NCBI GenBank assembly: GCA_032718475.1 | Contig: JAUCBJ010006798.1 | Coordinates: 1,972 to 65,971 of the forward strand | DNA from: Nemertoderma westbladi | Lineage: Eukaryota > Animalia > Xenacoelomorpha | Length of the DNA: 64,000 nt | Direction: 5' to 3' | Shown here: positions 8,734-60,890 of the stretch, in pieces | Layout: the number at the start of each line of letters is the position of its first letter | How positions within the stretch are numbered: the stretch's first letter is position 1 | The notes under the pieces: model-generated | Told to the model about the DNA's origin: nothing | The model's database searches: none | Seen by the model: the letters and a program-made list of their open reading frames with translations, nothing else | Program-made: the position numbers and the translations under genes

Positions 8734-9298
8734 TGTGAAATCCGCTCGCTCGACAAAGCGCCATCTAGCGGATATCTCAGGATTCTCCACGATTTTACGT
8801 ACCGGACAGTTTTCAGTGTTTCACGGATTGACAGACTGCCGATCTGTGGTACGGTGCAATATTTATTCGTACCACGGGCCTATAGGACTGATTTTCCTGT
8901 ATTCAGCACAACACATACTGACACATTCAGATATGTGATTGTGCCGACGATAGATACAGTTACAGTTCGAGGACATAGCCTGATAGCTGCATAGTCTCTA
9001 GTTACTAGTTAGCGGTGCATATTTGTATGTACGGTCATCGATATATGGGTCGTATTACAGTCTGGTAACTTACATTATACCAGTCTGTCAGTATATTCAT
9101 CGTTTTTACTATTGTACTAGACTTTACGGCTAAATATACTTCCATGTATGTCTGTGCGTTAGCGAAAAATATTATTAGTATATCGGGACTACCACACGCA
9201 TCTAGACCTACACCGCAGTTCGGCCTGTCAGCCTGTCCTTCTGTCTTTTCGTTATAGCTCATCCTGCCATCCGTCCGTATACCTGTGTGGTCGTCACA
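8734..9298 (+). repeat. 3' LTR of element A (~565 bp)
   Basis: Follows a purine-rich tract; terminal inverted repeat TGTGA/TCACA; sharp junction to B's RT. Partner LTR is not in the window. Confidence 0.75.
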
Positions 9299-11850
9299 AA
9301 CTTACCAAATGCAGGTAAGAGTATTCGGAGCCAGGGACAGCCCCAACTGCACCATGTACGCATTAAAGCAGACCGCATTAGACAGACGAGACCAATTTGA
9401 CCCAGAAGTAGTTCGGACCGTGGAACGAGATTTCTACGTGGATGACGGCCTCAAGAGTTGTGACACCTTGGAGCGCGCTACAACCGTAGCACACCAACTC
9501 CAGGATTGTCTCGCTAAGGGCGGATTTCACCTGACGAAGTTCGCTTCCAACGAACCCGAACTGGTGAACTCATTTGACCCGACGGATCGCAGTGGAGGTG
9601 ACCTAGACTTAGACCTAGAACCTCTGCCGACGACCAAAGTATTAGGACTTAGTTGGGACCCTAACACCGACAATTTTAGGGTACGTGTAAGGTCCAACGA
9701 CCAGACTAGGCCTCTCACTAAGAGGACTTTTCTCACTAAGAGAAAAGTTAGCTGAGCGATGGAGGGACTGGGAAGCCCAACTGACGTTCCTACAAGACTA
9801 TACCATACCGAGGGTATACTTTCCTTTGCAAACCACCTTTCCTGCCGATTTAGAGCTTCACAGCTTTAGTGACGCTAGCAAGGATGGATTGGGGGTTACT
9901 TTATACCTTAGACGACAAGTGACATCGGACAGCTACGAAGTGTCTCTCGTTACTTCAAGGGCTAGAACAATGCCATTGAAGTATATGACCGTACCTCGTG
10001 GGGAGCTGCAAGCCGGAACGATATCCACCGATATTGTCAGTCTAGTTCAACGCGAGCTGGAAGCTAACTTGAAGGTCACGTATTGGACGGATGCGACGTT
10101 GGTACTTTGGTACATAAACTACGAAGCGTTTGAGTTCAAGACTTTCGTAGCCAACAGACGGGCTGAAATACTAGACCGGTCGCTCAAACAAGATTGGCGT
10201 CACTGTCCAGGGAAGCTGAACCCAGCTGACATCGCGTCACGGGGGATGCAACCGCTTGACTTTTGTAAATCAATAAATCCTTTTGGTTTAGAGGACCCGA
10301 TTTCCTACAACGACCATCAGACGAATGGCCACCGTTATTCGACGCGACAACCAACACCATACCAGAGGGTGCCGAGATAAAAATCGACAAGGTTGTCAAG
10401 TCTAAAGCGAAAGCCAACGCCAAGGTCAAGAGGAAAAAGAGACGGACGAAATCTGATGACCTGGACGCCAGACCTGACATTATGCCAGACGTCTCACCAG
10501 ACATTCGACCAGACGCTTGTACGAATCCGTCGCCGGATGTTCCGCAGGAGATTTCACCAGATGTTTCGCCAGATTGTTCACCAGATTACTCGCCAGACTA
10601 TTCACCAGAAGAGACACCAGATTGTTCTCCGGATTGTTCGCCAGATTGTTTGATGGAACTCACGACAGAATGTCTACCGGACATCTCACCAGACTTTCCA
10701 CCAGACATCTCGACAGACTGTCCACCAGACTTTAGACCAGATTTTGAACCAGACTTTCTGACGGAAGTTACGCTAGACAGACTTTGGGACCGACGACAAG
10801 ACATTTTGCTGGAAGTTCCACGCTATGTCTCACCAGACGTCTCACCAGACTGTTCACCAGACGCTTCACCAGACTGTCTACTAGACACTCCATTAGAAGA
10901 CCCATTGGAGCGGACCTTTAGAGACTTACCGAATTTGACTTCTTTGGACGACAAAGGTGTGGCCACAGCGATTACACTCCGCTCGAAGAAGGTACTTGAC
11001 TTACCACCTACAGGTAAGCGTGTGACTAAGGTTAGGAAGCTTACAGGCTCACAGGAACACACTGACACTGTAGAGTTGAAACCGTTACTGCCAGTCGACA
11101 CATTAGGTGCGGATGGTAAAGGTAAGACCGTAGAGATTGACGTACTTGGGGACTCAGACAAACCTACTGGAAGGCCCGTGGGCCTACCAAGTCCAGACAA
11201 GTATCCACACTACGACTACACCTTACCCGATGACGTCACTAACACTTACGTTGACAGGATAGTGAACCTAACTAGATCATGGACTGACGCGTGCCGCAAG
11301 TTAGCATGGCTCAAACGATTGAGACAATATGCCAGAGGCAAACGCGACTTTCCTAGAAGACTTACCTTAAAGGAAATTGGCCAATGTGAAGTTGATATCA
11401 TTAGACATTATCAATTGCGATATTTCGCACGAGAGTTCACAGCAAGGTAAAGGTAAACAGATTAAGTCTTCACCGATTTTGAGTTGGAGTCCGATTATTT
11501 ACCGGGGCTTACTTTGTCACAAGTCCAGACTCCAAAACATCGACTTTGCACTTGACTTTAGGTATCCTATCATCAAACCGCAACACCATGAATTACAGCG
11601 CGCTATGATACTGGACGCACATGTACAACTCAAACACGTGGGTAGACACCACTGTCTATCACACTTACGCTCGAGGTTTGTACTGATTAGACCTAGTAAG
11701 GCACTGAGTTCGGTAACACGGAACTGTATTATTTGTAAGAAGGTGCACGCGAGGATAGGACACCAAGAAATGAGTGAACTACCACTAGCAAGATTACAGG
11801 CGTTTAGACCCCCTTTCACTGAGACAGGGATAGACTGTTTTGGACCCATA
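9299..11850 (+). pseudogene. Element B pol: RT end, RNase H, linker, IN zinc domain (frameshifted, small deletion)
   Basis: FGARDSP, FYVDD, FSDAS, PRGELQA, YWTDA, NPADIASRG, H..H..CIICKK, GIDCFGPI spread over several frames. Confidence 0.9.
10470..10880 (+). repeat. Coding 12-bp tandem repeat (SPDx)n in the RNase H-IN linker of B
   Basis: Repeated TCACCAGAY/TCGCCAGAY units; translation SPDC/SPDY/SPDV. Confidence 0.85.
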
Positions 11851-13032
11851 CCTAAAGAGTTGAGGTCTCTATAGGGGTGTGGGTAACAGGCGGCGGCGGA
11901 CTCGTGAGGGTCTGGGGGCACGTTAAATCCAAATATAGTGCTAGGGAGTCACTGAAGGCCCTCGTGTCTAACGAACCATGAATTGCCATGGTGCCGTGGT
12001 TCCGTCTAGTCGGCATGTTGCCGTACTGCCAGTCCTGTACACAGTAGGGGTGGTGGCATGGCGTGATTTGTGGTTCATGTGGCGTGAACTATGTTTTGTA
12101 TGTGAGCAACCAGTGGCAGTTGGCTTTGGGGCTTGGATGGTTCCATTGGCCATCAGCTGTTCCGTTTTTTTGATACTATATGTTATTGTCTCCATGTTCA
12201 GCTGATTGGTCTTTGGAGTGTGTTGAACTTCTGGGTCTCTGAGTCTCTGTTGCTGTAGGTACGTGAGTACACGTGATTGTATGTGTGGCCACTGCGAGTG
12301 AGTATGGGAACCCTTGCCAGTTGGACCAGACGCCGCTGGTATTAGTAGGACCATATCTCTACTGCGCCCCAGCATACTTTGTGCACACAAAGATATTTTG
12401 CCCTGATGGCAAAATAAGGTACTCTCGACTCTTTATGAGTTGATACAATTTTGTCCCCTCTGATTTGACCCCGATTTTGTCTTACCCGATTTTGTCTTCT
12501 GTGTGTACGTGGTATGTGTTCGATTTTGTGCTTACCGTTGTGTACTTGATTTCGTGAACATCTGTTGAGTACACGTGTACAGTGACTGGTAAGTGGTTAC
12601 TTGTTCAGTAGCTTTTGAGCTACAGACAGTATTGTCTTTTCAATACTGCCGGCGAGGCAGGTGAAAACGAGTCAAAATTCCATGTTGGGTAGCGCAAGCC
12701 CACATGGGACAAGACCATCGGTTAGGCCCAAGGGCGACCTTGGTGCTCGATCGCTATCGACTGGTCCACCTGCCGGTTGACTCTTTGTTATACTTTTGAG
12801 TTGGCTCAATGTACAGTCAGGCCACAGTAAGTTGACAGTAGCCGCCCATCTGGCTACACGTTCGACGAGCTGTGCCGGTGTGATCGGGGGACCGAAAACA
12901 GAACCCGGGAAGCATCGGGCCACCCTCCGGCCCGGTCTGATAATAACATCAGTCGGACTGGCCCCAGGGGTGGTGGAAACACGTCCGCCTCGTGGGTGCG
13001 CCTCGGGGAGGAGCCCAGAAGGACGAAAGCGA
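11851..13032. other. 1.18-kb insertion of unknown type in the integrase of B
   Basis: Interrupts IN just after GIDCFGPI; no clear TSD, TIR or tail; 12968-13031 is the exact reverse complement of 63937-64000. Confidence 0.8.
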
Positions 13033-13901
13033 ATCGCGAAACGCGGAAGGGTACAGGTAAAACGTTGGGGATTGATCTTCACTTGCATGGCCAGCAGAGC
13101 TGTCCATATAGAGCGAGTGACAGACTTGACCACCAATGCCTTTATCCTAGCCTTACGGCGATTTATCGCTAGACGTGGATTGGTCAAATCCATATACTGC
13201 GACCAAGGGACAAACTTTGTGGGTGCACGGAACGAAATAACCAGAGCTTTGAGAAAGTTGGACCAAAACCAGATTTCCGAGGAACTACGTCCTCACCGTA
13301 TTGTTTGGAATTTCAACACTCCAGACAGTCCGTGGAGAGGTGGCGTTTGGGAAAGGCTGATTGGCTAAATTAAGACAGCTATGGCTAAAGTCGTACCGAC
13401 GCAACACATCTTGACAGACGACCAACTGACGACGTTACTTATAGAAATCGAAGCAATCTTAAATACAAGACCGATCGCTTTGATCCCAGACAATAACGAC
13501 GTACAGTTCGCCTTGACACCAGCGCACCTGCTTATGCAGGCGCCGAAGACATTGTTGCCCATTTCGGTACCCGTTGATAGTGACGGATACAGCAACAAGG
13601 CTTGGAAAATCACTCAATTGCTTGCAAATAAATTCTGGGAAATATGGCAGAAATATTATTTGCCCTCTATTTCGACCAGAACCTCTTGGTATCTAAATAC
13701 CCGATGTTTAAGACGTGGTGACCATGTTTTATTGGCTGAAGAAAATCTGAAAAGACGGTTTTGGCTGACTGGAGTCATTTTGACCACGCACCCTACATCT
13801 GGTGTAGTGAGGACAGTTACTGTAAGGACTATCGACGGACGTACCGTAGATAGGCCTGTACAACGTCTCGTGCTCCTTGAGGAGACTAGAAACGAGACAG
13901 G
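13033..13901 (+). pseudogene. Element B integrase core and C-terminus (internal stop)
   Basis: KRWGLIFTCMASRAVHIE, CDQGTNF, GGVWERLIG*, RPVQRLVLLEE; last codons resume after C at 24658-24691. Confidence 0.9.
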
Positions 13902-15117
13902 TGTTCGCGCTTTCAGACCTTTGGCAGTTTAACCCGCCAAATTAAGATGTCTTCTAGATATTAAATCGCTTTTTAGCCTATGACAAGTATTTGATTCACT
14001 ACACTAGTCGAAACCAATCCGTGCGCGACCATTCACCCGCTGGATATTCCCGGGAGATTGGGTTCGACGGTTTAATTTTGTTGCTATGTAAGCCTAATGT
14101 ATTATTCGACTGACAGTATTATATAATCTCTGACAATATTATTTACCTTCGGGAATATTAACAGTTCCTTTAGGACGTGGCGCTTTATCTACATAAACAG
14201 AGTTATGACTTAAACTACTCACAACGATATGGCTTAATTATAATTCACATATATGGCGCATTCTTTAGGAATGCTTCTTTAACAGACTCACTCATACACA
14301 ATGCTGCACAATACTGCACACTAATCTGCCGATCTTCACTGATTTTAGTCACATATAAAAGAAACACAGACTGACTCATGTAGGGTCTATCAAATAACAT
14401 TAGATTCACTTCAAACCACCTTAACATAAGTCACAATCGTTTATCTGTAACCCTTCTCTCTTACCTTCGGTATATCAAGAATATTGGGTTTCGGGGTTAT
14501 TTATCGTTATTCCAAATATAATAATTCATCAACCATGTTATGAAGAACTGACAGTAAATAGCAGTATAACAATATAAAAGTATGCACAGTATTACACAGT
14601 ATGCAGTGTATGCAGTACTGCAGTATGCAGTGATTACGAAATTGCAGAGTGTTTGTTTCGTCAGTTAAAGGATATATGTCCTTGTAATTAAACCTACTAG
14701 TGTTGAGCTAAAAAGCAGAAAGCACAAAACACTAAAAAGCCGTTCTTTCGTGGCTTTGAAAAACTCGTGACTACTGCTCTATACGAGGATACCAACTCCC
14801 TTATTCCACGAAGCTCCCGTTCAACACAGAGAAAGAGCAGTGAGATAGGAAATTTTCAGTTCAGTACTCTGTGATTGGTCAAAATCAAGGCTAACTCAAA
14901 ATTCTATTGGGAGATACAAAAACAAGGCTATGACGCAACCTCCCTAGGCTTGTTGGCCGATTAAACAGAGCCCAGATGCCTGCGTACAGCAAATCAGCCA
15001 ATAAGCTGGTAACTTGCACTATTTTTAGCTGTAGATCACTTTGAGAGTATTCTTAGCGACTGGGGGGGAACTGGCCAACAAGGCAAACGAATCAGTTATC
15101 CCACAAAAGCTTTTACA
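13902..15117 (-). repeat. 3' LTR of C
   Basis: Near-identical to 23437-24652 (one mismatch seen by eye, ~14670 vs ~24205); adjacent PPT. Confidence 0.96.
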
Positions 15118-18067
15118 CCGCTCCCAGAAAATGGGATTTAAGTCTATAAAATATACAAAATCACAGTTTCTAAAATATAAAAATACTCTAAACAGTTAGT
15201 CTATCTTGCGCGGACGGCGTTTACGCAGTTTCTTAAGGCTAGCAAGAGTCCTTTTCTCTTTGGGGGAAGCCACTTTACTAGGAGGGCCATAACTCCTGGG
15301 TGAAGGGTGCAATATGATTGCATTAAAAGGTTTGGGTTTACGGTCGGTGTCTCGTCCATTTCGATATGCTTCTCCTCGAGCTGATTTTCCTCCGCTTGTC
15401 ATGGGATACGTTCGTCCAAAACTCTCGCAGAGAATAGGGTTTTCTAAGCTTGATATCTTCTTTGAGATTCGAGGTTTCCCAATCGAACTGAGATAAGGCC
15501 AATTCGTTTATCGATTGGACTTAATGTTATAACTTACGTTTATCTGAACAAACGCAGGTTTCTTTGTTGATCTTTATAGAATAGCGTTTAACTCGTGTCG
15601 TACAACGCTCTCCTTCACTTTGATGAAGGGTTGTATCGCGTTAAACGGGACGACCATACGGTTGGATAATGATATTAGGTGTCTGCGTCATAATCCAGCT
15701 AGGTAAGATGGGCGGCTAGCTAGAAATCACTGTCGGAGTGTTACCGATTAATTGTTAGGGTAGCACTAGATCTTGAACAGTGAATACCGTCCGCGAGGAT
15801 CCGCGACACCACCAGGATCGCAGGTCTGAGGTCCAACTAAGGAATGAGGAGGTTTGACCGAGTATTCCGGGACTCTGATCGTAGGTTTACTCTAGGATCG
15901 TTAGAGCCGAGTGAGCATAGGTGATACGTCAAACAAGTTTCGCTCGAAACTCCAGTAAATATAACGAACACAACTGTGTTTAACACGACGTTTCCGTGGA
16001 TGTTTATGTCTTTCCGTTTATTGGCTGGGTCTAGGACATTTATCGTAATAATACCAAAGACGCACGTCTGGTAGGGGAAACACGGGTGATATTTATTTGT
16101 TGTTACAACGCTTCTATCAAGAATTCCAAATATACGTTGGAGTTACCGCGTCCATTTGTTTCTTTAGTGTCTTTTCTTTCGAGTCGATTTCGAATAGAAT
16201 TTTCGCATTCGAATTTCAGTTTATGGTTCCGACTCCGCTGGGCAGGATATATAGTCGACATAGTCCGTATTGTGTAAATCGATAGGATGACCAGTAGTTA
16301 AGAAGACCACATACGTACCATTACGCTGCGTATAAGCTATCAACAAACGCTTGCAAAAGTAGAGTATATCGCTCCCCGATACCAAGAACATCTGCTATCA
16401 ACTCCATCATGTCTGCTATATATGAGTTTATCCACATTATAAGGAGTTTATATTCAGGCTAGCGAGCGTCGCTGCCTACTCCAATTAACCCCCGGACAGT
16501 ACGAGATCCTCAGCGCCGATGTGTCGTCGCCGCTGTACTTTCGCCAACGACGTAGCCGCACAACGACAACGACAACCGGCACAAGTCACTCGACTGTCCG
16601 TCCCAAAGGCTTAGATGTACTTCAGGTTTTCCTTGGAGAGTTAGGTTACTTTTACGATTGCGACTAGCTACTGTAAACACACCTTAGTAGTAACATTCGC
16701 CTATAAACTCACAAGTACCACACACACAACTTGTCACAAATTACACACACTCGGGTCACTTGTCCGTTAGTCAATGCCTTCCAGAATGTCACTATATTAT
16801 TATGTATCCTTGGATACTATCAGTGCACTATTTATTCCCTATGCTATTCAATGGGACAAGCTTTCTATTGTTCTTTTAACTCAATTCTAATTCTAGCGTG
16901 GTTGTTGCTATGGTGACATTATGCAAAGCTAGCGGTAGAATTAGAGCAATTCCAATGCATACAGATCTGGGATGTTATTTAATAGTATTCTTTAATAGTC
17001 AATGTTCTGTTTTATACATGACTTTATGAATTTTATCGGCTATTGACTATGTTTGGGAGACTTTCGCACACTCATACACATAATAAGATAAATCTCCGCT
17101 CCCTTGATCTATTAATTAATGGAATTTTGGGAATGTTATAAATTGCGTAAAAATGGCAATTTATTAAATTCATTAAAAGGCATGAATTTAAATTTATTCC
17201 CTGAAATTTTATTATTTGATAATTAAATTGACATATTTTGATTCTAGAATATGTCTGGGGACACAAGATCCTTAATTCTATGACAATTGTCTTTTTAAGA
17301 ATATCGGTAAATGCTACGATATCTTAATTGACTAGAATTGCTGAAGGATCTGAATTTTACAGATTTTGATTTATTAGATTTGCAAATATTAAATAATTAA
17401 TATTTGAGATGGGCACCGATTTATTCCAGAACTTGTCTGGGGACGTTAACCACTGATTCTAGAATTTGTCTTTCAAGTATATCGGTGGGTGCCGCGATAT
17501 CTTAATCGACTAGAATTACAGATGGTCAAAGGGTTTAACAGATTTATTTTGCGTTATACGCTACTGTTAAAGGGACATCACGCTACTATATGTATTATTT
17601 AATATACGGTATGAGAGCAATATCGCACGAAGCAATGTCAGTGTGAAGAGGCAAGTCGTTTCCAAGGTCTACCCAGAGCTTGGTTTAGCCGAGACACGAG
17701 GATCTGAACTTTGCATTCCTAATACTCTGCCTACCAATAATACTTGAATATAGTAGTGGCTTTATTGTACTTTAATAAGTACGGACATTTCATCTTACTG
17801 TAGTTACGTATTTGTAATGTAATACGGACAGTAAGGAAGAAGGAAAAGAATTATTTCTTGCCGTCGCATTAAATATAATATATACGTAATTAAGTAATAA
17901 ACGCGAATATATATTGCACTAATCTACTAAATAATCGCTAAAATAACATTCTACTGAATAAAATTAAAGAAAACGATTATAATAAAATTACATAGTAATA
18001 CATACATAAATATAAAAATAATAAAATAATATAAAATAATAGAGTCACACACCCACTCCATATGTTG

Positions 18068-21000
18068 TTACGTTATGGAGTCCCTAGATGTTTGAAGGAT
18101 TAGGGAGGTGGTCGTGGGAAGAGAATCTTGCCTTCCACAGTTTCCGGAGAGTCCTCCATTCCCTTCCGATAAACACAAACGACCGACTGGGTGATTGAGT
18201 CGCTGCATCCTGAATACAATTCCAGGTTTCCTCTTCGTCCTGGAATAGTGACGATAGAAACATCGCTCAAAGTATATGACGGCGTCACAAAGCCGATTCC
18301 AGGAGCTATAGTGGTCCGTCGCTCTCTGCAGGAGAGGTGAGAGTCCCTGCGAGACGTCTGATGTTCCAGAGCTCCAATCGCTCTCTCTGATCTTCATGAA
18401 GGATCCACTCGCGGAGGGGAGGCCCAGATCCACGGCGTCGTCCCTGGCAACATGTAATACCGACAGATCTATCCCGGGTTCAAATAACTCCGATCCACCC
18501 GTCCGGGTTTCAGGTTCGACTTTCTCCGCTCCCTTGGCTGGTCTAATCTCAGTCGGAGTAAGATGGGGAGGCCATTCATTCTCCTTACTCAGGAAGTCGG
18601 GTTCACCTAACCGGTCTATAGTATCTGTCAGTTCTTGAGGAGTTGCTCCTCTGGAAGCGATGTCCGTTGGATTAAACTTCTTGGGGCAATATCTCCATTG
18701 ATCTACATTGGAGCTAAGATTGTCATTATCTGAGGAGTGTGGTGTTCCCTCAGTTGGGTCGTCTCCCTCACTAGTATCATCTTCCCATTCACTCACCTGG
18801 CAGACGCGATCTTGAAGCAGTCTTTCCCTGAGCGTTCTACCGGAAGGTCCAGTAAGGTACCAACCTACTCTAGTTCTTACCGCATAGGTCTGTAGTGGCT
18901 GCGGTTGAGCAGGCCGTTTCTCTAATGTCTCCAGCGCCTCATGCGCGTTTTGGCCGATGAGTATTTGCACTCCAGGATAATCAGTCTGGAATCGAGGTAT
19001 GTTAAGATGTTGGATGCTCTCATCCTCGTCCCAATTATAAAGGTCTGCTTGAGTAGTAGCGAAGTTCTTTATAGCCACCATTTTCACTGACCTTATACTG
19101 TATTCTCCTAGTTTATCCTGTGGAGTGGACAACTCACCTATATAATAGTCGGCAGCTACAGTAGAATTCCAAACCTGCATGATCCCTGACATGTTTAGCT
19201 TGGTTCGGAACTTGGGTTGTCCAGCAAAGATGACTTCGGCTAGTTCCCTATCGATGAATGTTCCTGTGCTACCGGAGTCCAGGAGGGCGTTCACTATATA
19301 GCTCTTCTGAGGTCCGTGGACCCGTAACTGGACTACAGGAAATTCTCGGATTCCTATATTGGAAGTTGGCGCTTTCCAAGATGGTTGTTGATCGGAAGTA
19401 GTTAAGGTAAGGTCGCTGTCTGTGTCTTTCTCATACACGAGTGCTCGATACACTGCGGTGGTGTTTATTAGGTAACAGGATTCGTTTTGGTCGGAGAACT
19501 CGTCCGTATAGAATCCTTCCATCTCAGATTGATCAGTGTCGTTCACATCACTGAATTGGACATGTAGTTCGGACTCACTTACCTGACTCGGGCTGTTTTG
19601 TTCGAATTCCGTGTGCAACAAGATATGATGTTTTGCGCCGCACTTTGCACACCTTGCGTCGGAGTTACAGGTTCGCCGTTGGTGTCCTCGTCTGAGGCAA
19701 TTATAACACAACCGCTTATCCCACATGACTTCACGTCTATCCTCGAGTGATTTCCTCAGGAATTTATCACACGCATTTAAACGGTGGGGCCCGTCGCACA
19801 GCACACATTTCGGCTTGATGTTACTTACTTTAACCTGTGCTATGTGGTGCACACTTGTTCTTTCCTCGGGCTTTCTCACCTGAATTCCTTTAGGAGACGT
19901 AGGAGGGGTTTTTTGTACCGGTTCCCTTCTGTCATTGGGTCGAGACTTGGATTTACTTACCTGTTCTTTAGGCATTTTATTGACATAATAAGGCCTGTCA
20001 GTGTCTTTCCCGCTGTCCTCTCCTTGAGAGGTTTGGCTTTCACCGTCGTCGGTATAACATACTGGTGTTACCCTTCTCCTAGAAACGGGTTTCTCACTTA
20101 CCTTGTTTTCCAATGTCTTCTCTCTGGACTGCCTTAGGAGCTGTAATTTCACTTCTCTATCTAAGAATGACATGAGATCAGTCATGGTAGGGTCTCGTCG
20201 TTGTTGTTCCATCATATATAACACCTTCTTATCCCAGCGTGTACCTACTCCACCCTTGGGCAAAGCAGATGCTAAGGCTCTTACAACCATAGAATTCTGG
20301 TATTCATGAGACTTACCTAGCCAATCTAATTGTCTACAGATCTCCTGAATCTCATCGGAAAACTCTATAATCCCGCTGCTAAGAAACTTTCGGGGCGCCA
20401 TTAATTTTGCATACAAATACCCAGCTATGTCATTCCTATTACCATACCTGATGTTTAGTGTATCCCAAACTTGTCTTAATCCATCTGGATGTCCAATAAA
20501 TTTTAACGCCATTGACTTGGGAGGTCCTTCCAAACATTCGATGAGGAATCTAAGTTTCTCTCCGTTAGATAGTACAGAGGTGAATTATATTTTAATTTGT
20601 TTTGTGAACTACTGTTTATTTAAATATTGTCTGTAAATTGTGTGCGGTCATTCTGGAACAAAATATAAGAGCCCTTACAGGCTCACATCAATCAATCAAA
20701 ACAGAGTTCTGTATGTTATCTTTGTAATATTCATTAAAAGGTAACCATTTCATCTCATCTCCATTGAACTTGACAATCTCTCCAACCTTTACCGCTTGCC
20801 GGGCTTCGGTTCTAGCCATTTGACGCGTAAAACTTTCTTGGGCCATCGTGCTATTTAATATCGAGTTATCGGTATATAAATTTCTCGGATTATGATCAGT
20901 TCTATAGGGAATATCATTATCAACAGGTCTATAATTACCCTTAATAGGGTTCACTATAGGAGTTTCTACTTCGCTAGCAGTATAAATGCGTGTAGGCTCC

Positions 21001-21248
21001 ACACCTTGCGCATGAGATACTTCAGACCTAACAGGTTGACACATTGTTACAGAGGGTGGTGGTATACCCTTTTGGGTATTTACTAATTTATCGCGTTCAA
21101 GCGCGATACTTTGCTGCACTTCTTGCAACTCTAGCCTACTTTCCCTTACTGTGCCCTTGAATTGCTGGACAGTCTCCTGCATCTGCCCGAGCAGGATATC
21201 CATTGTATCTAGTAGACTGTCTGACAGGTTCTGCTTAGTATCAGACAT
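18068..21248 (-). pseudogene. Element C gag-protease fused in frame to the RNase H tail/linker; split by a 121-bp insert
   Basis: KFNGDEMKW, knuckles CVLCDGPH/CYNCLRRGH/CAKCGAKHH, protease ALLDSGS, then directly QWRYCPKKFNPTDIASRG; no YxDD or DDE motifs. Confidence 0.88.
20580..20700 (+). mobile_element. 121-bp 5'-truncated retroposon end inserted in gag of C
   Basis: 6-bp TSD ACAGAG (20574-20579, 20701-20706); (ATCA)n tail; removal restores NSVLSNGEKLRFLIECLEGPP. Confidence 0.8.
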
Positions 21249-22579
21249 GACTAGGTATGTACAGTTGAATGCCTACTGCTATATTACAGTCTAAGCAAGT
21301 CTAGTAACTCAGTATGAACTGCTAGCCTAGTAATTAATTACCGTTACTGCTACTCAATGTAGCGAGATATATATATAATATATTAGAATACCGGTATACT
21401 TATAGTATATATAACTATATAAGTATTATTACAGACTAGGTTTATCTCCGAATACCGGTATAATTTTAGCATAAAATATATATAAATATATAATAGGCCT
21501 ATCGGAATACCGGTATACAGCTTACAGTTTATAGTATATATAATTCTGAAATAGAATTAATTACAAGTACCGGTATAATTTCAGCCTAGATTTATAGAAA
21601 TAAAGATAATAGGCCTATCGTAAATACCGGTATATCAATTGTTTCAAATAATTGAATTTCTGTTACTTTAGGGTTACTTGGTTACTCTAACTTACTTTAT
21701 TACCGTTATTTAAGCAGTAATCCAACTGATATTAAGACCTAATGGTTGTATGGTAGGCCTACTATTTATAAATCTTTAGATTTGATTTATAATATATATA
21801 TACCCGTTTTAATGGGTTTTGTCAATGTTTGAAATAAATGTTATTATTTCTGGGGAGTAATCACTACACAAAGCGGTGCGCTTTCAGTGAAGTGTTACTT
21901 ATGAGACACTAAAACAAATAATACTAATTTACCTAAGTTACTTAATACTACAAATTACGTACAATTCGGGTTGAGATTACAATCTCTAAATAAACACAAA
22001 AATTTACAAAAAACACAAAATACGAATTTTTAGGGTAATTTTACAAGAAGTCTACAAACCAGCCTAACAAAGGGTTAGAATACCGGTTATTACAACGGAC
22101 AGGGTACTACGGTATTTGAAATAATAAGTAGTAGTAAATACACTGCGTTGTCTAGATAGGAAAATACCACCGCCTGACGACCTATAGCCGTATCGCTATA
22201 GGTACTACGTTATGTATCACGGAGTGTTCCTACCTAGAAGTTAATAGAGCTAATCGAATGTGCCTATCAACCACTTTACAACACAAATATAATGCCTACA
22301 CTTACTTTCGGAAAGCACTGTACACTAAACCCTAAATTAGGTACGAGTACTTGTACAACAGATAATCAGTAGTTAAATATACTTGAACAGCTAAAAGAAC
22401 CACGGCATCTGCTGGAGTGACCGATGCACAAAATCACCAGTCTTTACCTACGCCGAGCAGCCCGTGTAGTACCGGGGTTAATTTAACTATAGCGGTATGT
22501 ATAACAAACACAATTACTGTAGGAACAAACTTGGGGAATGAATGTTGCGGATAATCGCATAAACTCTGAATAATAAATA

Positions 22580-23140
22580 TTACGCTACGCGTACAAACTA
22601 CTCAAACAAAATACAGACAGAACACTGACAGACTACTATCAAGCCTAAACAAACTACGGTATATGCAGACTCCGAAATGATTAGGGAGTATGCGCTCTAA
22701 CCCAGTAGTGCGACTTATTCTTTAGTTGGGGGATTACCTTACAGCGTTCGCTGCCCCTACTGCCTAATCGTACTTAATCGGACAGATGATCTACACACGC
22801 GGCAATCCGTTCAGACCTAATAACAGCCAGACAACTATCCAGCCTACAAATTATCTAAATAAAATTATACGCTACCCGTACAGACTTACACAAACAAAGT
22901 ACAGACTAAACGATGGCAGACCACTCTCAAGCCTAAATAAACCACAGGACATGCAGACTCCGAAATGATTAGGGAGTATACGCTCTAACCCAGTAGTGCG
23001 ACTTATTCTTTAGTTGGGGGATTACCTTACAGCGTTCGCTGCCCCTACTGCCTAATCGTACTTAATCGGACAGGTGATCTACACACACTGCAATTCGTTC
23101 GGACTTAACAGCAATCAGACAACAGCTCAGCCTACAAATC
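22580..23140. repeat. ~289-bp tandem duplication in the 5' leader of C
   Basis: ATGCAGACTCCGAAATG...GATCTACACAC block at ~22662 and ~22951. Confidence 0.85.
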
Positions 23141-23436
23141 GTCTGTACTATCTGATCAGGCTTACACGCCTTCTGTTCAATACTGGCCTACAAATAAATA
23201 AAACTTGACAGAAATAAGTAAACCATATAAAGGTATAAGGGGTGATCAATCCCTAATCCCCTAAACAGCCTACCGGTATACAACAATCAAATCGAATAAT
23301 ACTAGTGTACTTATACGGCAGTACCGGTTAGAACAGTTAGGCCTACTGACCTACAGAGTGTACCGGTTCAGGTTTACCGGTTGACCGGTACTTTCAACTT
23401 TATTGCTTACTGCAACAAAGAAGCTATATCCTTTAA

Positions 23437-24652
23437 TGTTCGCGCTTTCAGACCTTTGGCAGTTTAACCCGCCAAATTAAGATGTCTTCTAGATATTAAA
23501 TCGCTTTTTAGCCTATGACAAGTATTTGATTCACTACACTAGTCGAAACCAATCCGTGCGCGACCATTCACCCGCTGGATATTCCCGGGAGATTGGGTTC
23601 GACGGTTTAATTTTGTTGCTATGTAAGCCTAATGTATTATTCGACTGACAGTATTATATAATCTCTGACAATATTATTTACCTTCGGGAATATTAACAGT
23701 TCCTTTAGGACGTGGCGCTTTATCTACATAAACAGAGTTATGACTTAAACTACTCACAACGATATGGCTTAATTATAATTCACATATATGGCGCATTCTT
23801 TAGGAATGCTTCTTTAACAGACTCACTCATACACAATGCTGCACAATACTGCACACTAATCTGCCGATCTTCACTGATTTTAGTCACATATAAAAGAAAC
23901 ACAGACTGACTCATGTAGGGTCTATCAAATAACATTAGATTCACTTCAAACCACCTTAACATAAGTCACAATCGTTTATCTGTAACCCTTCTCTCTTACC
24001 TTCGGTATATCAAGAATATTGGGTTTCGGGGTTATTTATCGTTATTCCAAATATAATAATTCATCAACCATGTTATGAAGAACTGACAGTAAATAGCAGT
24101 ATAACAATATAAAAGTATGCACAGTATTACACAGTATGCAGTGTATGCAGTACTGCAGTATGCAGTGATTACGAAATTGCAGAGTGTTTGTTTCGTCAGT
24201 TAAAAGATATATGTCCTTGTAATTAAACCTACTAGTGTTGAGCTAAAAAGCAGAAAGCACAAAACACTAAAAAGCCGTTCTTTCGTGGCTTTGAAAAACT
24301 CGTGACTACTGCTCTATACGAGGATACCAACTCCCTTATTCCACGAAGCTCCCGTTCAACACAGAGAAAGAGCAGTGAGATAGGAAATTTTCAGTTCAGT
24401 ACTCTGTGATTGGTCAAAATCAAGGCTAACTCAAAATTCTATTGGGAGATACAAAAACAAGGCTATGACGCAACCTCCCTAGGCTTGTTGGCCGATTAAA
24501 CAGAGCCCAGATGCCTGCGTACAGCAAATCAGCCAATAAGCTGGTAACTTGCACTATTTTTAGCTGTAGATCACTTTGAGAGTATTCTTAGCGACTGGGG
24601 GGGAACTGGCCAACAAGGCAAACGAATCAGTTATCCCACAAAAGCTTTTACA
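23437..24652 (-). repeat. 5' LTR of C
   Basis: Direct repeat of 13902-15117. Confidence 0.96.
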
Positions 24653-25816
24653 ACAGGAGACTACAAATCTCCACCCAATATTGGTAAATAGATGTGGGAC
24701 CTTGATTGGCATTGGGATTTATTCATTTCGTATTTTCTTTTACTAACCACAGCAATTAATTTAACTGTGTGTTTCCTATTTTTTACTATTCCGCTGGAGT
24801 TTCTGACAAATATATATATATATTTTTTTCCATTCAAATTTTAACATTGAAACATAATTTCCTGGAATACCTTAATCATAATACTATAAATACTTACATT
24901 CATTACTATTTATATATGTTGCAGTTTGAGTCACGCACTAGCTATGCTATGTGCCTTAAACTGTAGATATACTGAGCTACATAAATATTAGTTTATTTGT
25001 GCAGTAGGCCCATACACCATTATATTCTGTAATGTCTGTTATGTAAATTAAATTAAATGAATTAAATGAATTAAATGAATAAATGAATAAATGAATTGGC
25101 CGCCACATAGACCTACTGTATTTTAGTTATTTGTATTTGTATTACTGTATGTGCATTTGTAATCCTCTTCACTGTAGATAGAGACAGCGGTGGAATTCCA
25201 TTGTCTTTATACGTGAACATGGAGGGTAGTACCCTTATGTATCACATAGGAGCGGGATTGTGTGTACAGTAGGAATGGAATTCCACTTGGAACCCACAAG
25301 TGAGACATTTTTTCAAAAATTATTAGACAAATCCATTTATTTGGATTAAAATTTAAGAAAAACGATTCTCCAGTGAAAGCAAATTCTAGAATACAGCTAG
25401 ATAATAATTAAAATTGGGGAGGACAAGAGCGGATGGAAGGCTTGCGAGCCTACCGATAAATTTTTTTTGGAAAAGAAAATCGGCCTTGTTCTACGTAGTC
25501 GTGTCTACTATTATTTAGACCAATTAATTCTCGACTGCACTATTTTCTTGGGAAATGTAGCATGGGAAATTAAAAGGTGAGTATTTTAGACTCGCGGCTA
25601 GTTTACCCGGAATTCGTTTTTTTATTGGCACATTTTTTGGATTAGGAGCCAGTGCGAAATCACGCGAACCCGAAATCATTAGGCAAATGGGTTGGGGTTT
25701 AGAGCAGAGTTGAGCCAAAAGCCGACAAACTCTAAGTCACCTCACATCTAACCTCTATTTTGTGCTTCATCTAGTAGAAACGTAACGATATGTAACCACA
25801 TATATATTCGTATACG

Positions 25817-28800
25817 ATGGAGAAGATGTATAAAGAGTTACGTCAAGGGTTTACGCAAGAACAAGAGCACCAGGCGCCATTCAATCGTTATGGAGCTAAA
25901 AACTTTAGTGTGTTTGGAGTGGAGAGTATGGCTAGGAGTACGGCCATGCTCGCTAAATCCAAGGCGGACCCGAATGTTACGCGACAGCGGTTGGACGCAT
26001 ACAACAAAAGAACGGAGGAATTACGCGTGGAGTTCAATGCGTTATATCCCTACGATGCGTTATGCGACGCTAGCGACATTTGCGAGGATCCAGACACCGA
26101 AATATGCCGATTGTATCATACGCTGCAATATTTGACAGTAAACGAACCCTTACCTGCAGCTAGAGACGAATTTGAAGGAATGCATCTTTATAGACGCGCT
26201 CAAGGAGCGGATCCAGAGACCAAGGACGCGTTCTCCATATACAAACTGTTTTATAAATGTGGAGCGTGTATGCGCGAGCAAGACAACGCGATTCCTATGC
26301 GGTTGAACTCGGAGAACCCCGAGCCGATATTAGCGCGATGTTCACACCACCAAAGTCTACGTTACCAAGAAGGCGGATACCCTTTGACAAATCCGTATCA
26401 TTCGTTTAAAATGAGTGGACCGAACGCGGGTGAGATCGTTATTTACGAACCCAAATTAGTCGAACCAGACGTCTACAGCATGGTAGTGGACGAGTCTAAT
26501 AAGTCGACACAAGAGAAACGGGAAGCTTTGAGCCTCTACAGGGCGTACAAGGCGTACGAGAAAGGCGAGATCGAGGAGTTCGGTGGAAGGCTCGCGAGCC
26601 TACCATTCTATTGGATATCCCACGATCAAACCGAACCCAAGGAGATGACACCCGAGCTCTTCGATAGTATCACCTTTGCTCAGCGTTTGTCGCAGAGACT
26701 ACAGATACCTCATGTCGAGATGACGCGAGAACCTCAGCCCCATTCTACTGGAGCGATAGTACCGGTTGCGAGACCAACTAGTTTTCCTATTAGTATACCA
26801 ACCTGGAAGGAGACAACTTACGAGATCCCTATAGTTGAACACCCGGAGATCATCTCGAACCTGGATTTCCTCCCATCGGTTACCTTTGGTGATGTGTTAG
26901 AGTCAGCCGAGTTGCGTAAAGTAATAGTTCAAAAAATCGTACGCAACGTGCCTCCACATATTATGGACTTTAAGGAAGTGGATCGCGCGGGGACGGATAT
27001 CGCACCTTGTATCTTGCGAGGATATCTGACGAAGACGATTCGATTATGGATCGGAGTTGGAACGTTTGAGACCGACACCGATATCGCGACCAATTGGACC
27101 GGTAAACCTATTAGTTTCGATGATGAAAAGTCGATTGGGAGAATTTGGAACCCTACCGACGATTTACTCGACGATTGGGACGTGACTAGCCGATCTCTGA
27201 AAGAGAATGGTTATATGTTTTACGATAATGAAGGAGGAAGCCATCAGCAAAGCCTCACTTCAAAGACTATACAGATTAGACCACCAGATGGCGTGTTACA
27301 TGTCTTCAGCCGACAGAGGAGTGATAGGAAGATGCCTATGCCGGAAGGAACGACGCAAAGACACGCGATGATAAAACGGATAGTTAAATCCATGGACCTG
27401 GCTTGTAGCATAGAAGCTAGGATGTTGCCAAAGGCCGTGCGAGACGTTGTGTTGGACAAGAGCATCGTCAAGATCAGATCCGGTGTACGGGATGACCTTA
27501 TTAGCGATTTTGCAGGGATGCCCACGGAAGAGGACCAATTGCCTACGCCATACGTGGATACTAGACCATTGTTGCTTTGGGCTATTGAGCAAGGATATTT
27601 TAGGGAGTATAACACGCTAAAAACTGGGACGGGTTATATCTCATATCTAATGTTCAGTTGGGATTACAAGGAGAGTAAGAGGAACAAATACATGGACGTA
27701 TACAGAGAGGGAGATACCCCCGGCGTAAACGAGTTCGAGTCACAGTTGAAGTGACGAGGTTGTGTGTATTGGGCGATTACTTCACCTCCGCGGATAATCT
27801 TGCAATACTATTTAGCGATAGAATCTTCGGTTAACGTTTGTTTCATCGCGGACGTAGTATCCAGAACCCTAAAGCGACACCCGTTATGTCTTGGCGAAGG
27901 ACATACCTTTTACGATGGAGGAAGGACGCATACTGATGTATTCCGACGATTTCTCCAACCCTTTTATAACACTGCTGCGCACTGCGAAGTTTTCAAGCGA
28001 GCGGGACTTAGCATTTTCAGGGACGTCTATCTCTCTCACGCGGCAAGTCTAGTCGACAGACCGTCGATGTTAACGTTAGTACCCTATGACGGGGAACGCC
28101 ACGTGGAATTCGAACGCCCGGAAGGATCCTGGAAGGCTCGCGAGCCTACCGCCCATCACGACGATGTGGATCCGACCGAGTTGGCGCTAATAGACGAACC
28201 GTTACAGCAACTCATAGAGATAGGGGAGAACCTTCCGAGGAAGACGCGAACTGAGATACGCGAGTTGGAGAAAAGCGATGCCATGGTTTGTGTACAACCT
28301 ACGGAGACGAACATACCGACTGACCCGGATGATGAGAATTATCACGTGGACGGTAGCGCTTGCCCCATCGGAGATCTCATCTATGAGCGAGTTTGGTATC
28401 CTGCCAACACTATTTGTGGCAGATGCGGAGCAACTGGCCATCGCAGTGCGGAGCGAAGCACATATCTCTACCGGATTTAGTATGCAACTGGTGCGGGGAT
28501 CAGCGTTCGCACACTTTCTACACTTGCTGGCGTTTCGTGGCGCAGTGTACTTATTGTAATATTAAGGGCCATAGGGCATCCGAATGTCAACTTAGAGACG
28601 TCCCCTATGAGCACATGTCAGTTAAAATCGTTCGACAATTATTCGACCATTGGGAGGATCTAGCAGACGAGCATGTATCGACGCAGCGACGCCGCTTCCC
28701 TATGAGAGCACATTTGGGATTTTGGGCCGTAAACCCTCTCATAATGTCAAAGGAAGGATATGTATCGGCTATGCCTCAGTATGATGAATTGTTGGAGGTA

Positions 28801-29562
28801 TTGGATATATTGCCGTTGGACAGTGGATTCAAAGTTGTGCGGGACTATTTCTTACAAGTGCACCCCGACAACAAGAATACTTGGAACTTTCAAACTGTGG
28901 TGAACAAGATTACCGCCGGAGAATTCGATAAACTGCGAGTTGAACAGCGGAATCGAGGAGCCTGGCATTCGATAGCTTGGGCATACCGGAGCGCATTTTA
29001 TCACAAACGCGTAACCTCGTGTATTCTGGACGAGACCGACGTTTTGCGTGAGACTGGCTTCAAGGCCACGCCATTAGCAGAAAAGACGCGTCACCCACAG
29101 GATGATCAGCAATTTCGTATACTCAAAGCCCAGAAGGCCGGACAAGAGATAAAGAAGATAGTGAATGTCGCCGAGAGGACGACATCGAAGTCGCAAATCC
29201 GGATGACTCGGGGCACGGTTTCCCTTGCTAGAGAACCACGCGGAGGGACAGGATACGCTTTGACTGAACCCATTAGGATTCAAACGACGTCAGAGAGCGA
29301 GGTGTCAACGGACGGAACGGTCCTACCCTTTCGACTTCCTCCTAGCGTTGTAGAGACTCGATCCGATGTTAAGCCGACAGTTGGAATCGGACGAGGATTT
29401 AGAGGATTGAGCGCACGACGGATGTGCAAAACTCCCGTCGTCCCCTTTCCTAGCGTTTTGGAACCACCGACGACTCGACGCCGAAGTCCGAGCCCAGTTC
29501 GACCTCGACCACCCCCCAATCGCACTAGAGGACGTGGACGAGCCCGCTCAGCGAAGGAATAG
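25817..29562 (+). pseudogene. Accessory ORF3 of B (~1250 codons reconstructed): CxxC..CxxH motif, DEDDy 3'-5' exonuclease-like domain, 3 CCHC knuckles, Arg/Pro-rich tail
   Basis: ORFs 25817-27754, 27764-28480 and 28393-29562 join via one in-frame TGA and a frameshift near 28455. Motifs FYDNEG, IQI, LPKAVRDVVLDKSIVKIRSGVRDD, YVDT, W..LQYYLAIE. Collinear homolog at 47580-50766. Confidence 0.82.
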
Positions 29563-29597
29563 GAAGCGAGGAGAAGGAAGGCTTGCGAGCCTACCGA

Positions 29598-29677: not shown

Positions 29678-30213
29678 TGAATGTTGGGTTTGGAGGAGCG
29701 AGATATGGAAAGGAAGGCTTGCGAGCCTACCGTTAGCAATTGGTGCTCAGGAGAAGATATCCAGACCAGCAGGACGAACTTTTAAGATCGTCAGGAGGAC
29801 TCTTTAAGACTCATTTTAAAGTTATTAGCGCATTGTGTTTATATTATATTTGAACTGATTTAATTTGGTGGAAGTTTATTATGTATATTTACAATATGTA
29901 AAGATTTATCGAAAGAGATTTGAAATTATTTGTTTGATTTATTCTAATTTGTTTTGATTCTAATTTGTTTAATTTGCTTACCTTGATAACCGAAAGCCTT
30001 TTTTGTATTTTAGGCACTAAAGTTAATTAGTAAATTTGTATTTGTATGTACGATCGATTGTATTTACGCCGTATCTGCAATATTAAGTATGCAATAATTA
30101 GATAGTGATTATATTTTATATTTTAGGCCCCACCAGTAGATTTAGAAGTAGTTTGTAAATATTTTATATTTCGATTGGTGAAAACAGTCTTACTTACTGT
30201 TTTCATGGAGCGG

Positions 30214-45132: not shown

Positions 45133-47311
45133 TGTTAAACAACCTACCCCTGTACTAACTGCAGAACCGCTAAAACATACAAAGACGTGCTTTACTGTTA
45201 AACTAGCGGGTCCCTGCCTAACCAATAAAGACACAAAGACTGCTCTACTGTTAAACAGGGGTAATCAGGAGCGTGTTATTACTAATGTAGGGCTGCTAAA
45301 TACAAAACCGCTACTCACCGTTGGATGGCGCTAATCTGCCGTCCGCTAATATATTTTACTAATTTTCTACGGCTCCTGCTAATCGCTTGTTCCTTTCTCT
45401 ACCGATCACTCGATAGAGAGCTAACTGTTCGAACAAATGAGCCACGCGGGAATAACCAAAACAATAAACCCGAATCGGCTCCCTAAGCTTACTTAAAACG
45501 AGTGTGAGAGGCTTTACACTCTGAGTATATTCTTATGGCATAATCTTACTGTTAAAACGCGCTAATAATTACGTCTTTTCTAATCTAATCTAATCGCGTC
45601 TAATCGCAAAGACTGGGGTTCCCTAACGGAATGTGTGAATGTGAGAATATTTAAATAATCATATTTTATTTGCAGTGTTTATTAGGGCTAATACCTACAG
45701 TGGGACTAAACTTGCCTACGGCTGGCTTTAGGCCAGCAAATTACTAATGCGTGTTGCGTACTGCATACTGCGATCTAACTTATTGTCCGCTAATTAAATA
45801 ACCGCCCAGCGTGAATAGTGTACTGTACTCCAAATTAATACCTTAACTACTCTCCGCTATGCTGCGTACAAATTCTTAATTTTACTAATTAATTACAGTC
45901 ACAAATATGTTACAGCATACTAATTACTAAGTATTCCAGAATGCGCAATTCTAATTTATTACGTAACTGGTTATACTAGTAACAGTCTAAATACCGTATT
46001 ACTTTCGACCTAATCAGTAATTATTTACAGTAAACTAAGAAATAGAAATCAATCAAAGGGGAAAAGAGCACCTATCCAAACATTCGTGATTTATTAGGCA
46101 CACTTTAGTAACACACCAATCAGCGTAACAATCAATATTTTATACTTACCAATTTAGTTCCTAATGCACAATTCTCAATTAGCGATCAACAGTTCACAAC
46201 TCGCAGTCTACTACTCAGCTCGCAATGCACAATCCACAATTCGCAATTCGCAATGTAAGGCACGTAGGCCTCTCCCGAGTACATCTAGGCTTCCTAACTA
46301 ACCCGATTCCTGCCCCACTAATACTACAAAATAGAGACAAAATCTGGATCATCAGCCCCTAACTATTGTACCAACGAGCGGTCTCCACTCTACACTGCAA
46401 ACTGCCCGACCGCAACGCGACCTTCCCGCCAGCATTGCCCGCCCTTGAATTACTACCGTAACGGAACATGCAAATCACAAGTCTGACAGTCTAAGAAAAT
46501 CCGGTAGGATTATTGCATAGAAAGGAATCACGTAGAACCATTAACTAAAGGGTAGAAATCATAGTTCCAGTTGTAATTGACAGTAATCATTGGGATTGAT
46601 TGAGAAACACAAGCAAGAATAATCAAATTAGCGAATCATTGCAAGAAATAATCGAAAAAGCAGAAAATACAAAATTTACAACGAATTACGCACAAAATGT
46701 ACTTAGGTGAGGTGGGAGAAAGTAGAACAGCACTGCAAGCTAGCTAGAGACTGGACTGGTGTGTGTTGTACATACCGGCAAAACGCCAATTTATAGGTGA
46801 TTCGAGAGGGATGATGCAATCGTTCTCTCATTGGCTCCCCAATCCGAGCTATCATTAGACCAACTTGGAAGCAGTTAGGCCAATAAGAAAGCCGGATCGT
46901 GAACCTATTGCTCCTAAAATCCACAATTCGTCACCATATAAGGTTATTTTGCCGATGCTTAATTTAGCGGTACTAATAACATGATGCACAAAGGTTAATT
47001 TAGCGCAATTATAGAGAAAATTAAAACCAATAGCTAGCCCCATCAAGGCTAATAACAGCAAGCCCATATCCAGGGTCCAGCAGGAAACTTGCTACCCTGG
47101 AACTATCTACTTATATCCTATTACAAAACTACATAGGTAGGGCTACATACTATACAAAATGGATGAATTCAAAATATATGGGCGTTTTATTTTCCTTATC
47201 TAAATGTCACTGCGATATTATGTCTTATCTAAATAATTATACTGCATAACGGACTAATATATTATACTGTATAACGGACTAATATATGTATACAGCGCAT
47301 ATACCGTAACA
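45133..47311 (-). repeat. 3' LTR of E (~2.18 kb)
   Basis: Minus strand GGAGCGG|TGTTACGG ... TTTAACA; diverged homolog at 60891-63153. Confidence 0.85.
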
Positions 47312-47579
47312 CCGCTCCAAGGGAAAACATGCAATGTTTCCCTCCAATTGTAGAAGAGTATAAGGCGATATATACAAACAAAATAAATTCGCTTCCAAAT
47401 AATCTAAATAACTATAATAATTCTATTATATTATATGCATATATACATATATTGCATAATGGATTGCATACAAATTAAATTTACAAAATATTATTTCCTT
47501 CAATGTTAACGATTATTACATACAAATTAAATTTACAAAATATTGTTTCTCGTTTGTTCTACATAATGATTACACTTTT

Positions 47580-50500: not shown

Positions 50501-50766
50501 ACATCGCAAACGTCCAATGCAAAATCGTAGGGATACCGAGTGCGATACTCTTTCCGCAAAACTTCCATACGGTCTCCCAACGCTCTCATTCTTTCCCTCC
50601 TTAATTCCTTATCGTACGCGGGTTTGTACTTCCCATTTAGCTCCATTACTGACCTTCCATGTTAGTAAACGTTCGAATCTTTACATCCCGGTCAGGCAAA
50701 TGGTAGTTCCGCCTCCTCTCTAGCAGTAAATCCTCTCCGCGGTTGCGCTCTAATTTCCTTCTCCAT
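47580..50766 (-). pseudogene. Accessory ORF3 of E (DEDDy exonuclease-like + 3 CCHC); C-terminal tail deleted
   Basis: MEKEIRAQPRRGFT aligns with B's MEKMYKELRQGFT; YKLFYKCGECM..CQAHQ; FYDNEGGSHQ; LPKKVREAILNQDYVKVGSGVQSD; LQYYLVLE; CKLCGSTRH/CRWCNETDH/CGYCGVKGH. Confidence 0.82.
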
Positions 50767-60440: not shown

Positions 60441-60890
60441 AGTCTAAATAATATTTGCCTTCCGGCCAAAATCTCGCAAAAATTCGAGATATATATATAA
60501 TTTAATCGAAATACGATTAAATTATTTGTCAAATAATTAGTTGTCCAAATGTCAAAATAAATTCGCAATGCAATATTGTGAATTTAATAGGATACGGTTA
60601 TAGCAAATACCAATACAATATTTAAACAAAAATATTATTCTATAGCTATTATATAGCATTTAAATACCGGTATAGCACAAAATAACTTTGAATCTAATAC
60701 AAAATATTCAAAATAAACTTGCCACCCAAATATTTCTAATTTTGCATATATAGCTCTAATCAACGCAATTTTAATTACAAATATTATATGTATCCACTAG
60801 CGCGTGGCTACATCTTCGGGCTGCGACTCTCTATCTCTCTAACTTGAGCGATTCAAAAAACCATGGCAGGCTAAACCTAACTAACCTAAC

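Follow-up and report, generated by a model that had tools for sequence, protein, structure and literature searches.

A conserved accessory gene with a probable DnaQ-fold domain, a predicted leader intron and recurrent hairpins in BEL/Pao retrotransposons of Nemertoderma westbladi

Two BEL/Pao long terminal repeat (LTR) retrotransposons, elements B and E, share a 64,000-nucleotide stretch of the Nemertoderma westbladi genome (contig JAUCBJ010006798.1, positions 1,972 to 65,971; hereafter the window, in whose numbering all positions are given). Here we show that both carry, in the position of env, a third open reading frame (ORF3), an accessory gene long conserved in a BEL/Pao lineage. A central domain of ORF3 very probably adopts the DnaQ fold and is followed by zinc knuckles, and each element bears a predicted 198-nucleotide (nt) leader intron and a hairpin set, both previously unnoticed. 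We propose, with a probability of roughly 0.4, that ORF3 is a knuckle-guided RNA exonuclease of DEDDy fold that would act on the element's own RNA.

In Pfam, pieces of gag and pol from both elements match the BEL/Pao families Peptidase_A17, DUF1759 and DUF5641 (B pol, 7e-22 and 1e-19; E gag, 4e-10; E pol, 1e-18 and 3e-17), and Pao-type gag and pol domains occur in the order gag, reverse transcriptase (RT), RNase H (RH), integrase (IN), which identifies B and E as BEL/Pao elements, as a preliminary description of this DNA had done. That description placed ORF3 of B between integrase and the polypurine tract; the pol stop at 24691 does lie upstream, but a 10.7-kilobase (kb) element, C, intervenes and the tract is a candidate purine run only, at 29568-81 or 29707-17. 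The parts of ORF3 are as follows.

25817..29562, plus strand: ORF3 of element B, ATG 25817 to TAG 29562, 3746 nt, ~1248 codons, with one stop and one frameshift
26051..26383, plus strand: N-terminal conserved domain (CxxC 26258-69, CxxH 26339-50), 56-63% identical to E
27146..27859, plus strand: DnaQ/DEDDy-like domain with putative motifs ExoI (D470/E472, 27224-32), ExoII (D560, 27494-96) and ExoIII (Y665/E669, 27809-23)
27752..27754, plus strand: in-frame stop of the B copy, between the ExoII-like and ExoIII-like motifs; most other copies differ
28415..28587, plus strand: set of three CCHC knuckles; a frameshift near 28442 cuts the first of them
29200..29559, plus strand: Arg/Pro/Gly-rich tail (21 R, 17 P and 11 G in the last 120 residues)
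47580..50766, minus strand: ORF3 of element E, with several frameshifts; the frame stops at the LTR junction and has no tail

The diverged, collinear homolog reported for E is borne out, the two ORF3s being 40-63% identical. A proposed comparison of nonsynonymous and synonymous rates reveals constraint without yielding a ratio: the proportion of nonsynonymous differences (pN) is 0.27-0.45 and that of synonymous differences (pS) 0.81-0.92 in 6/6 comparisons of ORF3, with pS saturated and the ratio therefore not computable, against pN 0.27-0.32 and pS 0.75-0.87 in four pol controls. ORF3 is under purifying selection, with constraint of the same order as pol. Chance capture of a host gene was considered and rejected, because both elements carry ORF3 at the same site and under selection. 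The strongest 19-residue hydropathy window is at most 1.48 in 6/6 ORF3 pieces, in line with the earlier report of no evident transmembrane segment, and, with signal peptides judged by eye, ORF3 does not show the signal peptide and transmembrane anchor of an env.

The ~1250 codons first ascribed to ORF3 of B hold as a span from ATG to TAG but not as an open frame, since the stop and the frameshift divide it into three frames (25796-27754, 27755-28480 and 28387-29562). This copy is dead; the family, by contrast, is not uniformly broken at the two sites. Contigs of four public runs were compared with B, and three DNA runs (X1, X3 and X4, from three studies), one of which may be the window's own sample, cover the whole of ORF3 deeply. 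A base other than the window's stands at the stop in 31274/31274 (X1), 13349/13357 (X3) and 120.5/120.5 (X4) of the depth, whereas the frameshift site differs in X1 and X4 only, marked by loose ends and by a gapped contig, respectively. Contigs of X4 and X6 connect the integrase end to 24656 with element C absent. Because these other copies differ, the stop, the frameshift and the insertion of element C are lesions specific to the window copy. The contigs that run from the integrase end into sequence beyond C show that ORF3 belongs with pol in this family. Breaks in both B and E at the ExoII/ExoIII junction suggested programmed readthrough or frameshifting there, which was rejected for B because other copies are without the stop. 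A derivative lacking 26377-29431 is found in X3 and X4.

The assignment of the central domain to the WRN/EXD2/Mut-7/RNase D branch of nucleases had been called established, which is too strong because the evidence is indirect and individually weak; the DnaQ/DEDDy fold of that branch is supported in so far as several weak tests agree on it. Run over 1.84 billion proteins, a profile of B and E has two matches: P0002, at E 1e-4, and P0003, at E 9e-4. P0004 is a longer cluster-mate of P0002. Homology is upheld by profile comparison, P0003 reaching 95.4% (149 columns) and P0004 96.3% (95 columns). The suggested Pfam test, DNA_pol_A_exo1 (PF01612, cut-off 23.6 bits), finds no match in B or E, and P0003, P0004 and P0005 each touch that family below its cut-off, homologs scoring 11.9-14.6 bits. 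A five-row core profile compared with 177,635 PDB sequences has two matches at E<10, namely EXD2 at 0.57 and RNase D at 0.41. An RNase D profile built from 80 close sequences served for comparison by hhalign. Alignment A5, which omits rows whose ExoI region MAFFT misaligned in A2 and A4, reaches 86% with a score of 43, where 25 shuffles gave 18 at most, and matches the homolog's DxE and ExoII Asp with RNase D; A4 reaches 75%. In the ESM Atlas, PF01612-bearing clusters make up 25 of the 30 matches for the P0003 core, whose top three are unnamed clusters, and likewise 25/30 for E's own frame. The structural model of P0003 shows the helix-strand-strand-strand start of the DnaQ fold; EXD2, Egalitarian and RNase D lead two PDB structure searches with it, EXD2 ranking first by Foldseek (E 5e-4), and giant-virus 3'-5' exonucleases rank first in a viral structure search. 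We take all 39 Foldseek matches listed and the top nine from VIA to be DnaQ-superfamily proteins.

The word-indexed protein search revealed no additional relative, confirming 0/3242 candidates with B region 330-760, P0003 alone among 7988 with the family profile and 0/1958 with the core profile; scans of metagenome and viral contigs confirmed 0/29, 0/595, 0/16 and 0/44 candidate stretches; and in PDB sequences B alone had 0 matches and P0004 alone no nuclease.

Non-clustered acidic residues had been named as grounds for rejecting the fold; the four putative ones, D470, E472, D560 and E669, are identical in B and E. The ExoI motif, D470-N-E472, follows a predicted strand and is assigned by conservation and position, its D-x-E being aligned to RNase D for P0003 only. 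ExoII D560, kept in B, E, P0003 and P0004, aligns with D85 of Escherichia coli RNase D, which is presumably a catalytic residue. ExoIII lines up loosely, in global mode, with the RNase D motif YAAAD.

On either side of this domain lie further parts. Identity between B and E is highest (63%) in the N-terminal CxxC/CxxH domain, a possible zinc site of no known family, which has no meaningful match in Pfam or PDB searches. The motif series first listed for ORF3 is present in both elements, with an N-terminal spacing of CxxC-x23-CxxH in place of the x21 given. Three knuckles had been reported in both: E indeed has three complete C-x2-C-x4-H-x4-C knuckles in one frame, but B has two complete ones, one exact and one an x5 variant, and a third that is cut. 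The Pfam match of the knuckles, 0.009, is below cut-off. The homolog P0003 has three knuckles at its end as well, with a score of 90 that none of 500 shuffles reached (highest 53); the segment after the knuckles alone gives no above-chance alignment to P0003 (138/500 shuffles). The Arg/Pro/Gly tail described for B is present as stated.

Upstream of ORF3, both elements carry a predicted intron.

25577..25774, plus strand: predicted leader intron of B ORF3, 198 nt, donor AG/GTGAGT, branch CTAAC, YAG 22 nt later
50826..51023, minus strand: predicted leader intron of E ORF3, 198 nt

The two leaders have in common AAAAG/GTGAGT, ACATCTAAC and a YAG 22 nt past the branch word, and both introns are 198 nt although their interiors have diverged. 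The donor word occurs seven times and the branch word five times over both strands of the window. Because these rare words recur as a pair, at equal spacing, in both elements, chance is an unlikely explanation, and ORF3 is likely to be translated from its own spliced message. Between acceptor and ATG (25780-25815 in B and 50814-50770, minus strand, in E), ACGTAACG and a ATATATAT-GTATAC run are also common to B and E.

The second shared feature is a set of hairpins with YGYG loops.

25435..25454, plus strand: hairpin in the B leader
26585..26604, plus strand: hairpin within B ORF3, codon phase 0
28131..28150, plus strand: hairpin within B ORF3, codon phase 1
29576..29595, plus strand: hairpin directly past the B ORF3 stop
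29712..29731, plus strand: hairpin adjoining a candidate polypurine tract
11169..11188, plus strand: variant copy within the pol of B, one pair being altered in a compensatory way
Loops at 58635, 56031, 53803, 51115, 49992 and 48399, minus strand: hairpins of E
63478, minus strand: extra E-type hairpin just outside the LTR match

In B the 20-nt hairpin occurs in five exact copies, against 0 in 100 shuffles, and E has seven copies whose stem is unlike that of B and whose loop is likewise YGYG. Four sites are matched in position between B and E, with stems and codon phases differing: in pol (121/118 nt from an anchor), in the leader (134/92 nt before the donor) and twice inside ORF3 (offsets 59/65 and 84/63). 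Because the copies in ORF3 occupy different codon phases, the signal resides in the nucleic acid. YGYG loops account for 6/12 of the strong tetraloop hairpins in B and 7/20 in E, 13/32 together, against 0/3 in A, C and D, three other BEL pieces of the window. Taken singly, the hairpin windows show no exceptional stability (z +0.1 to -1.8); the weight of the hairpins lies in their repetition and position.

Taken together, these features allow a mechanism to be proposed, in part by analogy. ORF3 would be made from the spliced accessory message, and its domain, whose fold is assigned by homology, would be a DEDDy-fold 3'-5' RNA exonuclease. Its three knuckles would, as predicted, take hold of RNA of the element itself, perhaps at the YGYG-loop hairpins, which would confer family specificity. 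By analogy with trypanosome RNase D, in which knuckles lend RNA binding to a weak exonuclease domain, they may hold single-stranded RNA and feed its 3' end to a two-metal D-E-D-E site. The ends of element RNA, or RNAs paired to them, would then be trimmed during particle assembly.

Several observations count against this proposal. The B and E proteins have no direct nuclease match in Pfam, NCBIfam or PDB sequences, and their profile alone scores 1-7% against RNase D. For E, the ESM Atlas gives 0.92 with 164 shared features, short of the tool's benchmark of 170, and PF01612 covers 11-31% of E's top clusters. The modelling proposed for the domain of B failed to produce the fold, with a predicted local distance difference test score (pLDDT) of 33 and matches limited to short helices, and the P0003 model is itself weak (pLDDT 44, template-modelling score ~0.3, best Z 4.3, root mean squared deviation 3.9 over 88 aligned residues). 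Alignment of the ExoI segments of B and E with the homolog and with RNase D stays at chance level, the scores of 7 and 11 falling below the best shuffles (14 and 13). ExoIII is Y-x3-E rather than the Y-x3-D of DEDDy enzymes in B, E and P0003; it is a variant motif and, by its sequence, ORF3 is not a canonical DEDDy member. We found no paper on the effect of this Asp-to-Glu change. Some 250 residues separate ExoIII from the knuckles, in contrast to the compact trypanosome enzyme. As to the hairpins, the YGYG share refers to a class defined after the data were seen, and the inner five pairs are required by the scan criterion itself. Gag carries its own DUF1759 and knuckles, and the knuckles of BEL Gag could be an alternative ligand of the hairpins. 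Finally, B and E are close relatives, so that the co-occurrence of hairpins and ORF3 may come from descent.

The altered ExoIII and the R/P/G-rich tail are also what might be expected if ORF3 were a non-cutting RNA adaptor, Egalitarian/EXD1-like or Rev-like, whose fold, knuckles and Arg-rich tail would export, localise or shield hairpin-marked RNA. Egalitarian and EXD1 are among the top fold matches, and the element appears, from the predicted intron, to yield both spliced and unspliced RNA. Egalitarian is reported to bind RNA without needing its putative catalytic residues, and a structure of Egalitarian with an I-factor retrotransposon signal exists (PMC13186709). Against an adaptor, the four acidic positions are kept between B and E at 40-53% overall identity, and P0003 keeps DxE, D and YxxxE. 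We regard this reading as unlikely, although the strongest of the alternatives.

Somewhat less probable is a nuclease of counter-defence, trimming or destroying host small RNAs in trans (precursors of PIWI-interacting or small interfering RNAs). The ORF3 family is very abundant in the three DNA runs. Nibbler, a DEDDy enzyme among the fold matches, is described as trimming the 3' ends of PIWI-interacting RNAs (PMC13269885), and trypanosome RNase D, with the same pairing of domains, is reported to deplete guide RNAs when overexpressed (PMC7797062). The hairpins nevertheless point to self-recognition and, because they are family-specific, argue for action on the element's own RNA over general counter-defence; a general suppressor would presumably also aid competing elements, and the rotifer DEDDy ORF3s are reported to have no clear link to copy number (PMC5408684).

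An action on DNA, either proofreading or trimming of complementary DNA or the binding of the motifs as near-palindromic DNA sites, is improbable. The fold matches include WRN, exonuclease domains of Pol I and TREX1, the motif is near-palindromic with a CG-rich centre, and a conserved N-terminal CxxC/CxxH domain is present. RNA is favoured, however, by the strandedness of the hairpin changes: the sense strand has four G-U and no A-C pairs, wobble being confined to it, and the loop changes (8/13 copies) are all C-to-T on that strand. Knuckles of the CCHC type, moreover, mostly bind single-stranded RNA. That the domain is not a DnaQ fold at all, its matches being chance convergence around one motif, is the least probable reading, for although the tests on the protein encoded in the window each fall short of significance, several partly independent methods give the same superfamily and nothing else.

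Returning to the knuckle-guided exonuclease, a wider and more doubtful picture would be of a BEL/Pao lineage with a programme like that of complex retroviruses, in which a spliced accessory mRNA encodes a knuckle-guided nuclease, or nuclease-shaped adaptor, that recognises family-specific hairpins spread over gag, pol, ORF3 and the 3' end, protein and stems co-evolving as a self-recognition code. If so, each family would process or shield solely its own RNA. Probable exonuclease cargo in BEL/Pao elements, fused to knuckles and under constraint like that of pol, implies that such cargo is more widespread than rotifers, and a candidate RNA ligand makes the question of nuclease function experimentally addressable, with the hairpin of the sister family as a built-in control.

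The window as a whole consists of decayed BEL/Pao LTR retrotransposons nested in one another, and the remaining features of it and of the two elements are as follows.

9258..13901, plus strand: what is left of B pol (RT end, RNase H, integrase), with frameshifts and, near 11860-13030, an insertion
24653..24691, plus strand: final codons and stop of B pol, 3' of the nested insertion
13902..24652, minus strand: nested young BEL-type LTR element C, gag-bearing, which splits B pol from ORF3
45218..63417, minus strand: element E, LTR-gag-pol-ORF3-LTR, LTRs 72-86% alike

Within the window, element B has no gag and no 5' LTR, and no LTR partner was found by which its 3' LTR could be delimited. Element C (10.7 kb) is inserted at the last integrase codons of B with a 5-base-pair target duplication and LTRs 99.9% alike; it has a long gag-protease frame without a long pol frame and is possibly non-autonomous. 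The insertion of ~1.17 kb in the B integrase (11860-13031), whose terminal 64 nt recur exactly at 63937-64000, is probably a separate small mobile element. A 12-nt tandem repeat encoding S/P/D-rich units lies in the interval between RNase H and integrase of B pol (10460-10910). The ~490 nt after the B pol stop (24690-25183), which X4 and X6 contigs skip, are a copy-specific insertion. In E, a fragment that by eye resembles the end of a non-LTR reverse transcriptase lies inside integrase (52900-53200, minus strand); a second such fragment, at 38909-39430, matches RVT_1. Adjoining the right-hand LTR of E, a short R/G/S-rich frame (63936-63560, minus strand) with weak likeness to the B ORF3 tail, at a score reached by 2/500 shuffles, is followed by a purine run and the E-type hairpin, which suggests a further ORF3-bearing element upstream of E that shares this LTR in tandem. 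Elsewhere, a satellite array of 63-65-nt units (34472-37300) is flanked by two frames, one with a fibrinogen domain (32975-33667) and the other with a LamG domain (37655-38461). Rfam and ARAGORN scans gave no matches in the window.

Among known systems, the Juno, Vesta and Penelope-like hosts of the rotifer DEDDy ORFs are non-BEL elements. A C. elegans BEL-type Cer element is said to carry an accessory ORF perhaps called an exonuclease. In the literature listings and passages covered, no DEDDy ORF3 was found for BEL/Pao, and there may be a Cer precedent. DEDDy cargo in rotifer LTR elements, mentioned in the preliminary description, is indeed published: DEDDy ORF3s are described in the bdelloid Juno1/2 and Vesta2/5 LTR retrotransposons and in Terminons (PMC5408684, PMC5718144, PMC6431247). 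As described there, these resemble ORF3 of B and E in being a third ORF after pol without a transmembrane segment, in their RNase D-like DEDDy fold, in a changed acidic quartet and in a function likewise unassayed (PMC5408684). The quartet reported is DEED, against D-E-D-E here, and the descriptions covered mention no triple knuckle after the nuclease, N-terminal CxxC/CxxH domain, leader intron or hairpin set (PMC5408684).

Trypanosoma brucei RNase D (TbRND, PDB 7c42) is the closest parallel in domain pairing, a DEDD exonuclease followed by several zinc fingers, and the fingers are reported to supply most RNA binding and cleavage, the exonuclease domain being weak (PMC7797062). A search of the PDB with the whole-family profile puts it first, by virtue of the knuckles (E 6.9e-5), and it also appears among the fold matches. 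TbRND is, however, compact and cellular, with four fingers and a canonical D-E-D-D, whereas ORF3 has ~1250 codons and a long spacer. EXD2, Egalitarian, EXD1, Nibbler/Mut-7 and WRN, proteins of PF01612, are the top sequence and fold matches, and their ExoII region aligns, but identity is at most ~22% and the match lies below the Pfam cut-off. With BEL/Pao elements (Belpaoviridae) at large, B and E share a Gag with DUF1759 and knuckles and a pol of RT-RH-IN with Peptidase_A17 and DUF5641; they differ by a non-envelope, enzyme-like ORF3.

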